From IMG/VR virus record IMGVR_UViG_3300005326_000040, positions 32,001-96,000 of that record: a stretch of DNA of 64,000 nucleotides; one strand, given 5' to 3'. The notes under the pieces were generated by a model that was given only the letters and a program-made list of their open reading frames with translations, was not told the DNA's origin and did not search any database. Numbering within the stretch: the stretch's first letter is position 1; each line of letters opens with the position of its first letter. Shown here piece after piece: positions 28,031-44,178 of this stretch. A program made the translations under genes and the position numbers. This stretch comes from a virus. Its lineage: Duplodnaviria > Caudoviricetes.

Positions 28031-28146
28031 GTTTTCCTTCAAACTATTCGGTACAAACATATATCAAAGTATTATCAGCCTAACAAGTCTTTTGCTGGCT
28101 GAAATGCTATTGTGAAAATTATAAGTAAGAACTGGCCGGAAATTGG

Positions 28147-42896: not shown

Positions 42897-42961
42897 CCGC
42901 CGATTGTTTGCCCCTGCTTTCGCCTTTCGAGGCGATTGAGGGGCATTCTTTCGGCGGTTAA
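42897..42961 (+). repeat. Intergenic hairpin repeat H6
   Basis: Consensus arms, UUCG loop. Confidence 0.92.
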
Positions 42962-42983
42962 CAAGCAACCACTGGAGGCTGCT

Positions 42984-43232
42984 ATGAAGAAGCTGTGGTT
43001 TTGGGTGCATAGTGCGCCCACGGGGTTCGTCAAGGATGCTGATCGTCATGTTGTTGTGATGGCGATTGCTACCGAGGACGAGATTTATGGCCCTGGTATC
43101 GGTCTCGACAACTGGCACGAGACTGGTATCGAGGGCACTCTTGATGGTTGCCTCGCGACCCTCAAGAAGAATCATCCATGCGTCAACATGGAGACAATCC
43201 TCGGCGGCTGTTTGGGTTACGCCGTCGAATAA
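42984..43232 (+). CDS. Hypothetical protein
   Basis: 82 aa, GGAGG RBS. Confidence 0.75.
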   Translation: MKKLWFWVHSAPTGFVKDADRHVVVMAIATEDEIYGPGIGLDNWHETGIEGTLDGCLATLKKNHPCVNMETILGGCLGYAVE

Positions 43233-43540
43233 TAGTGGCTGATAAGTTGCTATCAAGAAAGGGCAGGAACGTATAGGAGTAACAATCCTAGTTCGAGTCT
43301 CCCCATAGGAAAGATAGGGCAAAGCCCACGTTGGACAATCTTTCCGCAGGTTTAGGCGAGCCAACCTATGGATGACTATAAACGGTTATAAGGCTCAGGG
43401 TCCAATGTTACTAGGTTAGGAAGGAGACCCAATGTAACGATAGCGGGTCTGGAGACAACTGAATAGCCCACCCTTCGGCAAGGTGGGCAATCTTAAGGGT
43501 ATGACTATTATGGTTGTATCCTTAAGATTGCCCAATTAGC
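43233..43540 (+). ncRNA. Candidate ~300-nt multi-stem ncRNA
   Basis: ORF-free on the + strand. Stems CCATAGG/CCTATGG, GGAAAGAT/ATCTTTCC, AGTAACA/TGTTACT, AGACCC/GGGTCT, and a 22-bp terminal hairpin. Confidence 0.55.
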
Positions 43541-43568
43541 CCCAACATATACCTGAGAGGAAAGAGTC

Positions 43569-43925
43569 ATGATCAAGGTGTGTTTCAACGAAGTGCCTGC
43601 CAATGTGGCGCAGTTCGTGGCGAAGAACATCCAGTCGGCGCAAATCGTGCGAGCGGCACGACCGGCGCCGATTGCGGCAGGAATGAAGCATTCGCCCAAT
43701 GTCATTGGAGGACGCCGTTACGGCAAGTACTCCAGGGGCGATAAGAACCGTAACCTCCGTAAGTCGGTGACGACCTATGGAGGACACACCTTCAAAGAGT
43801 TGATGGTGTTGATGGGCAACTCCGTGCCGATCAGCCAACTTCTCGCCATGAAGGAGACGAGGGAGTATTACGTCGGTGTTCGTCACGAATCGTGGAAGAA
43901 GTTCCGCGACCATCAGTGGAGGTAG
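43569..43925 (+). CDS. Hypothetical basic protein
   Basis: 118 aa, GAGG RBS. Confidence 0.75.
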   Translation: MIKVCFNEVPANVAQFVAKNIQSAQIVRAARPAPIAAGMKHSPNVIGGRRYGKYSRGDKNRNLRKSVTTYGGHTFKELMVLMGNSVPISQLLAMKETREYYVGVRHESWKKFRDHQWR

Positions 43926-43929
43926 TTCG

Positions 43930-44106
43930 ATGGAAAGGTATCAGTGGGAAGCCTTGGCGGAGACGTTGTTGATGCTCTCTCGTGCTCAGACCATGAGCGG
44001 TTTGAATTACGAACGGGTTCGACAGTTCGTCCGTGGAGAGAGGCCGCTGTCGCGGCGAATTCGCCGGTCGATCAACATCCTCTCCAGAACCGTATTCGAT
44101 AAGTAG
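43930..44106 (+). CDS. Hypothetical protein (possible small DNA-binding)
   Basis: 58 aa, Arg-rich, stop directly before H7. Confidence 0.6.
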   Translation: MERYQWEALAETLLMLSRAQTMSGLNYERVRQFVRGERPLSRRIRRSINILSRTVFDK

Positions 44107-44167
44107 TTCTGTTCGCCCCTGCTTTGGCCCTTCGGGGCCATTGTGGGGGCGATTCATTGGCAGTTAA
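44107..44167 (+). repeat. Intergenic hairpin repeat H7
   Basis: Upper stem nearly identical to H3. Lower stem diverged, TTAA retained. Confidence 0.85.
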
Positions 44168-44178
44168 GGAGAGGTCCA

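Follow-up and report, generated by a model that had tools for sequence, protein, structure and literature searches.

A 24-bp intercistronic hairpin as a possible RNA processing or stability site in a long noncoding spacer of a jumbo phage early gene array

The window analysed here is 64,000 nt long and corresponds to bases 32001-96000 of a 338,055-bp IMG/VR virus record, which is estimated to be about 97% complete. Positions refer to the window unless they are given as genome positions. The spacer under study lies in a plus-strand array of very small genes (50-180 aa), none of which matched a Pfam family, and copies of a repeated hairpin separate the array genes in most intergenic gaps. The GC content of the 39-47 kb gene array is 0.53-0.58 and the genome mean is 0.416. 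On a larger scale, positions ~28000-68000 (60-100 kb of the genome) have a GC content of 0.47, compared to 0.39-0.43 elsewhere in the genome. The orphan early array stands apart in its base composition. The features of the locus are as follows.

42897-42969, plus strand: copy of the repeated hairpin family at the upstream boundary of a three-gene unit (69.2 bits with covariance model R2)
42984-43232, plus strand: P0003, upstream orphan gene of 82 aa, identified by its translation and by a gene call on three metagenome contigs
43232-43253, plus strand: small 9-bp hairpin that overlaps the second stop codon and has three G.U pairs and a loop of GAUA; its 8-bp core is weak (-6.1 kcal/mol)
43233-43568, plus strand: untranslated spacer of 336 nt with stops in all frames, a negative coding score and lower GC
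43261-43304, plus strand: irregular hairpin with a 7-nt GUAACAA loop and the T-loop-like sequence GUUCGAGUC in its 3' strand (z -1.45, not significant)
43297-43456, plus strand: nested domain with an outer GUCUCC/GGAGAC helix, a three-way junction (43303-71) and a hairpin (43425-50); the stems exist, but the fold does not surpass that of shuffled sequences
43466-43488, plus strand: 7-bp G+C-rich hairpin with cUUCGg in the loop (-12.2 kcal/mol)
43484-43534, plus strand: long hairpin of 24 uninterrupted pairs, including four G.U pairs, with a 3-nt loop (-34.7 kcal/mol)
43556-43565, plus strand: Shine-Dalgarno region of P0001, AGAGGAAAGA, mostly unpaired in every folded context
43569-43925, plus strand: P0001, downstream orphan gene encoding a basic protein of 118 aa, with its own ribosome-binding site and AUG
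44104-44175, plus strand: copy of the hairpin family at the downstream boundary of the unit (R2, 56.2 bits)

P0003 ends with TAA followed directly by TAG, and the P0003 and P0001 ORFs share one frame, 336 nt apart. The unit consisting of P0003, the spacer, P0001 and a 58-aa ORF is bracketed by the family hairpins at 42897 and 44104. A search of 5.8 billion proteins identified no homologue of P0003, and Pfam yielded no match. No homologue of P0001 was found by a word-indexed search of 5.8 billion proteins or by a full HMMER search of 1.84 billion representatives, and this protein also lacked a Pfam match. Relatives of the two proteins were not found in viral contigs, and an ESM Atlas search with both yielded nothing informative.

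An earlier note on this DNA proposed a structured RNA in the spacer and named an ORF as the competing explanation for the region. Stop codons interrupt all six frames, there was no coding signal and no protein family match, and no ORF accounts for the region, so this competing explanation is not borne out. Each plus-strand frame contains 6-9 stop codons of at least two kinds, such that no single stop reassignment opens a frame, while the minus-strand frames contain 4-7 stop codons. Reassignment was considered after ARAGORN called a tRNA whose UUA anticodon would decode UAA stops, at genome positions 28046-28121 in a tRNA cluster just before the window; it was rejected as it opens no plus-strand frame of the spacer. 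The window genes read normally with code 11 despite this tRNA call. A log-odds score for codon usage, trained on 19 genes of the neighbourhood, was negative in all three plus-strand frames of the spacer and positive in the frame of both flanking genes. The GC content of the spacer is 0.46-0.50, compared to 0.53-0.58 in the flanking genes, and its six-frame translation identified no paralogue in the phage's own genome by tblastn. From these data we conclude that 43233-43568 is truly noncoding; ORFs otherwise cover about 92% of the genome.

The long hairpin lies 34 nt upstream of the P0001 start codon and is clearly the sole thermodynamically significant feature of the spacer. Folding windows that included it gave z scores of -4.6 to -6.8 on the plus strand, and it drives the z score of -4.0 obtained for the whole spacer. 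The minus-strand fold was worse (z -2.4, centroid -33 kcal/mol), and the four G.U pairs become A-C mismatches on that strand. The arms include a perfect 15-nt inverted repeat; by our own arithmetic, the chance that the nine central positions would all pair is about 1e-4.

Uninterrupted hairpins were then counted throughout the 338-kb genome. Those with at least 20 pairs occur at four loci on the plus strand and at none on the minus strand (~0.2 per shuffled strand), and those with at least 16 pairs at 13 plus-strand loci and at none on the minus strand (~0.3 in shuffled sequence). All four hairpins of at least 20 bp are intergenic, lie between plus-strand genes and contain 4-7 G.U pairs each. 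The three additional members of this group, which lie beyond the end of the window and contain 21-26 bp, are the following.

Genome 99009-99064, plus strand: long hairpin
Genome 139405-139456, plus strand: long hairpin
Genome 147042-147087, plus strand: long hairpin

The distance from the preceding stop codon to the start of the hairpin is 14-20 nt at these three loci, as opposed to 251 nt for the long hairpin of the spacer. A tRNA-like T-arm is present just after the hairpin at 99009-99064. As the long hairpins are strand-biased, intergenic and G.U-bearing, we conclude that the spacer hairpin is an RNA-level element of sense transcripts rather than a DNA palindrome.

The long hairpin is not an intrinsic (Rho-independent) terminator; no U-run follows 43534 (the bases are AUUAGCCCC), and a terminator scan of the spacer identified none. 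With 24 uninterrupted pairs on the transcribed strand, it falls within the length range of RNase III substrates (double-stranded RNA of at least ~20 bp, largely without interruptions). We also noted that positions 43494-43515, which span the 5' arm, the loop and the start of the 3' arm, are identical at 21 of 22 nt to genome positions 273938-273959 (blastn-short E 0.001). The match is in the sense orientation within a Rad50/SbcC-like gene, and ARAGORN places a doubtful 'tRNA-Asn (att)' on this coding segment. The match could reflect chance, a trace of recombination or an antisense target of the 3' arm.

A covariance model (R2; 71 positions, 23 pairs) was built from seven copies of the repeated intergenic hairpin and identified 11 copies between 39076 and 48856, all on the plus strand and scoring 16-89 bits. 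The upper stems of the copies clearly vary. The family occupies nearly every gap of the early array except the spacer gap, and R2 found nothing overlapping 43466-43534 at E values up to 10, including the 7-bp hairpin, which was rejected as a mini member of the family. The spacer hairpins nevertheless resemble the family in strand, in array and in lying between a stop codon and the ribosome-binding site that follows, and the apical CUUCGG-type loops of the family resemble the loop of the 7-bp hairpin. They differ in that the family copies begin within ~25 nt of the stop codon, whereas the 7-bp hairpin begins 233 nt after it. As hairpins are present in the neighbouring gaps of the array, hairpin punctuation of the transcript is the rule in this region.

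We tentatively favour the interpretation that 43233-43568 is an intercistronic spacer in which the 24-bp hairpin acts as a T7-like processing site of the RNase III type or as a stability site, although our confidence in it falls short of even. The spacer would be an unusually long untranslated stretch within a plus-strand polycistronic early transcript, assuming that the array is transcribed as a single unit, and the 24-bp hairpin would be its sole functional element, serving as a double-stranded-RNA processing signal, a stability signal, or both. An RNase III domain was not found in the phage, so the cutting enzyme would most likely be the RNase III of the host. Cleavage would separate a P0003 message with a tail of ~230 nt from the P0001 cistron. 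Removal of the 3' arm would free residues 43484-88, which would allow the 7-bp cUUCGg hairpin to close fully and to cap the new 3' end. The calculated energetics of the short and long hairpins fit such a before- and after-cleavage pair, which we consider a more sensible reading of the two alternative pairings than a switch. The 5' 230 nt would then be a spacer or 3' UTR that lacks a defined fold.

About two helical turns, as in the 21-26 bp of the long hairpins, is the size class that bacterial RNase III needs. In phage T7, many RNase III sites contain an internal loop, with cleavage confined to one strand, and retained hairpins cap the 3' ends of T7 early mRNAs. Like the T7 early mRNA sites (R0.3, R0.5, R1, R1.1 and R1.3), the spacer hairpin is intercistronic, comprises about two helical turns, lies on the sense strand of an early array a few tens of nucleotides before the next cistron, and lacks a U-tract; in both cases, the upstream RNA would retain a hairpin at its 3' end. 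RNase III cuts the early RNA of T7 at five sites, one of which, R1.1, is cut at a single bond (PMC4858673). The spacer stem differs from these sites in being uninterrupted and in being preceded by 230 nt of unexplained noncoding RNA. Small RNAs processed from 3' UTRs or intergenic regions offer a second comparison. The spacer resembles them as a noncoding segment located right after a stop codon with a stable hairpin at its 3' end, but it has no seed region or target, and its sole long match elsewhere (21/22 nt) is in the sense orientation.

A perfect long hairpin of this kind could just as well bind a protein, or stabilise the RNA without ever being cut. Two observations argue against the processing or stability site more generally. 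Its distance of 251 nt from the stop codon, as opposed to 14-20 nt for the other long hairpins, leaves the extra 230 nt unexplained, and complements of 6-8 bp are about twice as frequent in the spacer as expected (P 0.01-0.03), which hints at something further in the 5' part.

The earlier note had listed a set of stems in the spacer. When perfect complements were re-listed, all of these stems were recovered on the plus strand.

43278-84/43406-12, plus strand: perfect complement
43297-302 (GTCTCC), plus strand: perfect complement of GGAGAC at either 43423-28 or 43451-56
43303-09/43365-71, plus strand: perfect complement
43308-15/43338-45, plus strand: perfect complement
43317-27, plus strand: GGGC-AAA-GCCC, perfect complement
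43348-52/43363-67, plus strand: perfect complement
43425-30/43445-50, plus strand: perfect complement
43466-72/43482-88, plus strand: perfect complement

The stems are real, but the proposal that they form a single folded RNA of ~300 nt was not supported, as folding of the 5' 250 nt did not surpass that of shuffled sequences (z about -1, whether or not a pseudoknot layer was included). For 43233-43483, which excludes the long hairpin, the minimum free energy gave z = -0.97, and a two-layer fold that allowed pseudoknots gave z values of about -0.8 to -1.0. No 80- or 140-nt window without the long hairpin went beyond z -2.75, and the minimum-free-energy structure of the spacer accounts for 0.0006 of the ensemble. 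The three G.U pairs of the small 5' hairpin, like those of the long one, become A-C mismatches on the opposite strand. Perfect Watson-Crick complements of at least 6 bp were in excess, with 9 in 43260-43465 compared to 3.3 +/- 1.8 expected (P about 0.01) and 10 in 43233-43483 compared to 5.1 expected (P = 0.03), in a region that was not chosen blind but had already been picked for its stems. The 29-nt segment 43400-28 complements five upstream segments piecewise. This excess is a suggestive but weak hint of more structure than in a plain spacer.

Comparative sequence was sought in several collections. Three further contigs from other samples, which were found as contigs encoding P0001, are 99.96-100% identical to the window over 1.9-6 kb, and the spacer is identical in four assemblies from different samples. 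Only identical copies of the spacer were obtained, and no diverged homologue was found in any of the collections searched. BLAST searches with the spacer and with the surrounding 6 kb found no match among 50,697 phage records. A covariance model of the nested domain at 43297-43456 (R1) matched only itself in the phage's own genome, and blastn-short and six-frame tblastn searches of this genome also identified no spacer paralogue. Exact and gapped pattern scans of viral contigs, metagenome contigs and 185,579 species genomes returned only chance matches, which lay in coding DNA or at tRNA ends. The nearest relatives, identified via a Dda-like helicase, have a best identity of 44-52%; neither BLAST nor R1 found anything in 47 distantly related phage records. 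A search of sequencing runs for the spacer gave a single match, a DNA run from a groundwater metagenome, possibly of the source sample, and no RNA run was listed.

These results bear on the possibility that the spacer encodes a lineage-specific structured noncoding RNA of ~230-300 nt that acts in trans, e.g. as a decoy or scaffold. Such an RNA would be released by cleavage at the flanking hairpin or transcribed from its own promoter, and might contain a pseudoknot in which 43278-84/43406-12 crosses 43297-302/43423-28 or 43451-56. The presence of 336 noncoding nucleotides in such a densely coding genome, the enrichment of perfect complements (9 versus 3.3) with a segment complementing five others, the recovery of the same sequence from four assemblies of different samples, and the presence in this phage of a Ro60-like gene beside a T-arm-bearing noncoding stretch are consistent with it. 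However, the fold energy of the 5' 250 nt is that of shuffles even with a pseudoknot layer, the predicted structure is a minute fraction of its ensemble, and no convincing plus-strand promoter was identified. Moreover, Rfam, BLAST, pattern and covariance-model searches identified neither a family nor a paralogue or homologue, and the four identical copies carry no information on selection. We consider this explanation unlikely.

A functionless spacer, left behind by gene loss, recombination or insertion in an orphan array that evolves fast, is likewise a minority possibility. The long hairpin would in this case have arisen by local inverted duplication, and the perfect 15-nt inverted repeat in its arms is compatible with such an origin. 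All of the array genes are orphans without a Pfam family, the GC content of the spacer falls below that of the GC-rich array (0.53-0.58) but above the genome mean (0.416), and the 5' part contains no structural signal. Three findings are at odds with this explanation. There is no residual coding signal or paralogue of a decayed gene; the nine central pairs of the hairpin are kept via G.U pairing on the plus strand only, which points to RNA-level selection given the low chance of such pairing (~1e-4); and long hairpins occur exclusively on the plus strand genome-wide.

A more elaborate model is also conceivable, in which the 5' 230-250 nt constitute a new lineage-restricted RNA with a pseudoknot organised around the 43400-28 hub. 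This RNA would be cut at the 24-bp hairpin, capped by the cUUCGg hairpin and act in trans while the phage takes over its host, e.g. as a decoy that binds an RNA-binding host factor of defence or processing. Anticodon-less tRNA look-alikes and a Ro60-like protein are already present in this phage. We regard this model as quite doubtful.

The earlier note also described the 3' end as a choice between two mutually exclusive hairpins in a switch-like layout. The two hairpins do overlap, but share only the five bases 43484-88, and the long one contains 24 pairs rather than 22. When the 7-bp hairpin was forced, a 19-bp long hairpin remained and stacked directly on it, and the fold energy was -35.0 kcal/mol, as opposed to -39.3 kcal/mol when folding was unconstrained. 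Accessibility of the ribosome-binding site was computed with 50 nt of coding sequence included; the unpaired probability of the Shine-Dalgarno sequence and AUG was ~0.7 for RNAs starting at 43233, 43297, 43460, 43511 or 43535. The switch-like layout was therefore not borne out: a hairpin of at least 19 bp is present in both states, there is no U-tract, and the downstream ribosome-binding site is equally open. As there is no terminator and the ribosome-binding site is unchanged, the alternative pairing controls nothing obvious. A riboswitch-type expression platform was rejected, since the alternative pairings alter neither a terminator nor ribosome-binding-site accessibility.

It is thus improbable that the spacer is a cis-regulatory leader of P0001, whether through a riboswitch-like choice between the 7-bp and 24-bp hairpins or through pairing of an anti-Shine-Dalgarno sequence, AUCUUUCC. 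In the latter variant, AUCUUUCC (43338-45) would pair either with GGAAAGAU (43308-15), a mimic located upstream, or with GGAAAGAG (43558-65), the real site. This layout of mimic, anti-Shine-Dalgarno and real site does exist in the sequence, the spacer folded alone pairs 43334-45 with 43559-68, and the 3' hairpins overlap by 5 nt. Nevertheless, once coding sequence is added the ribosome-binding site is ~70% unpaired for every 5' end, the full leader included, and neither hairpin state makes a terminator or occludes the site. A known aptamer was not detected with Rfam, and AUCUUUCC is the complement of the phage's common ribosome-binding motif, such that an 11-mer containing it has 27 near-matches in the genome. 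With riboswitch and T-box leaders the spacer shares two overlapping hairpins just before a gene and a long, structured-looking leader. It differs in lacking a U-tract, sequestration of the ribosome-binding site and a recognisable aptamer or T-box sequence, and in that the overlap involves only 5 nt of the 24-bp stem.

The earlier note matched the spacer to no known riboswitch or ribozyme, and the Rfam check, now run, bears this out, as no family was found at either threshold, among riboswitches, ribozymes, group I/II introns, RNase P, tmRNA, Y RNA, T-box and large phage-associated RNAs alike. A scan of the whole window with Rfam 15 at gathering thresholds found only three tRNAs, all elsewhere, and a permissive scan of 43100-43700 (601 nt, E up to 10) gave five matches of 16-22 bits, compared to thresholds of 45-93. 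All five fall on the long hairpin, so we consider them hairpin artefacts. A tRNA, tmRNA or permuted tRNA was rejected, as ARAGORN at default settings found nothing in the spacer and only two pairs flank the T-loop-like GUUCGAGUC. Relaxed settings, with introns and permuted tmRNA allowed, gave nothing credible either; at a 70-80% threshold the program called a 'permuted tmRNA', which is not credible because it runs off the sequence and into the upstream ORF. A relic of a tRNA 3' end or attP-like site was also rejected; the 19-mer spanning GUUCGAGUC ends no bacterial tRNA gene in 185,579 species genomes. No Intron_gpI match was obtained at E up to 10, the stems were not threadable by eye onto the P3-P9 order of a group I intron, and P0003 ends in a double stop while P0001 has its own ribosome-binding site and AUG. 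A hammerhead-like CUGAUAA...GAAA (43239-60) was rejected, since visual inspection indicated that the essential G8 is replaced, and Rfam gave no match to it.

Genome positions 247850-249858, outside the window, comprise a gene for a 536-aa protein in which Pfam identifies a TROVE (Ro60/Rsr) domain (42.6 bits) and, just upstream of this gene, a 398-nt noncoding gap with three repeated units, the middle one of which contains a perfect T-arm (GTGG-TTCGAAT-CCAC). This gap is a candidate YrlA-like Y RNA next to rsr; an Rfam scan yielded nothing there. Kinship of the spacer with this stretch as a Y RNA was rejected, as the alignment was not significant (P = 0.29).

It is accordingly very improbable that the spacer is a known catalytic or tRNA-related RNA in disguise (group I intron, self-cleaving ribozyme, permuted tRNA or tmRNA, YrlA-type Y RNA or T-box): the shared frame of the flanking ORFs 336 nt apart, the T-loop-like GUUCGAGUC at 43291-99 with a D-loop-like GUUGGA at 43330-35, and the Ro60-like protein are the points in its favour, but the flanking ORFs have their own stops and start, group I threading failed, GUUCGAGUC is partly paired with only two flanking pairs and no proper T-stem, its 19-mer is absent from tRNA gene ends, the Rfam matches are hairpin artefacts, the low-threshold ARAGORN call is not credible, and the local alignment to the T-arm stretch beside the Ro60-like gene was not significant.

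A real but ordinary hairpin ends an unexplained, apparently unstructured spacer. An intercistronic hairpin is by itself ordinary, and the 230 nt that lack an explanation would gain importance only if a discrete, conserved RNA were to emerge from relatives or from expression data. If the 24-bp hairpin is a processing site, it would add to the evidence that this uncultured jumbo phage punctuates its polycistronic early transcript with diverse RNA signals (the repeated hairpins, the long perfect ones and tRNA-like elements), and the early region would be a useful model for RNA maturation in giant phages.
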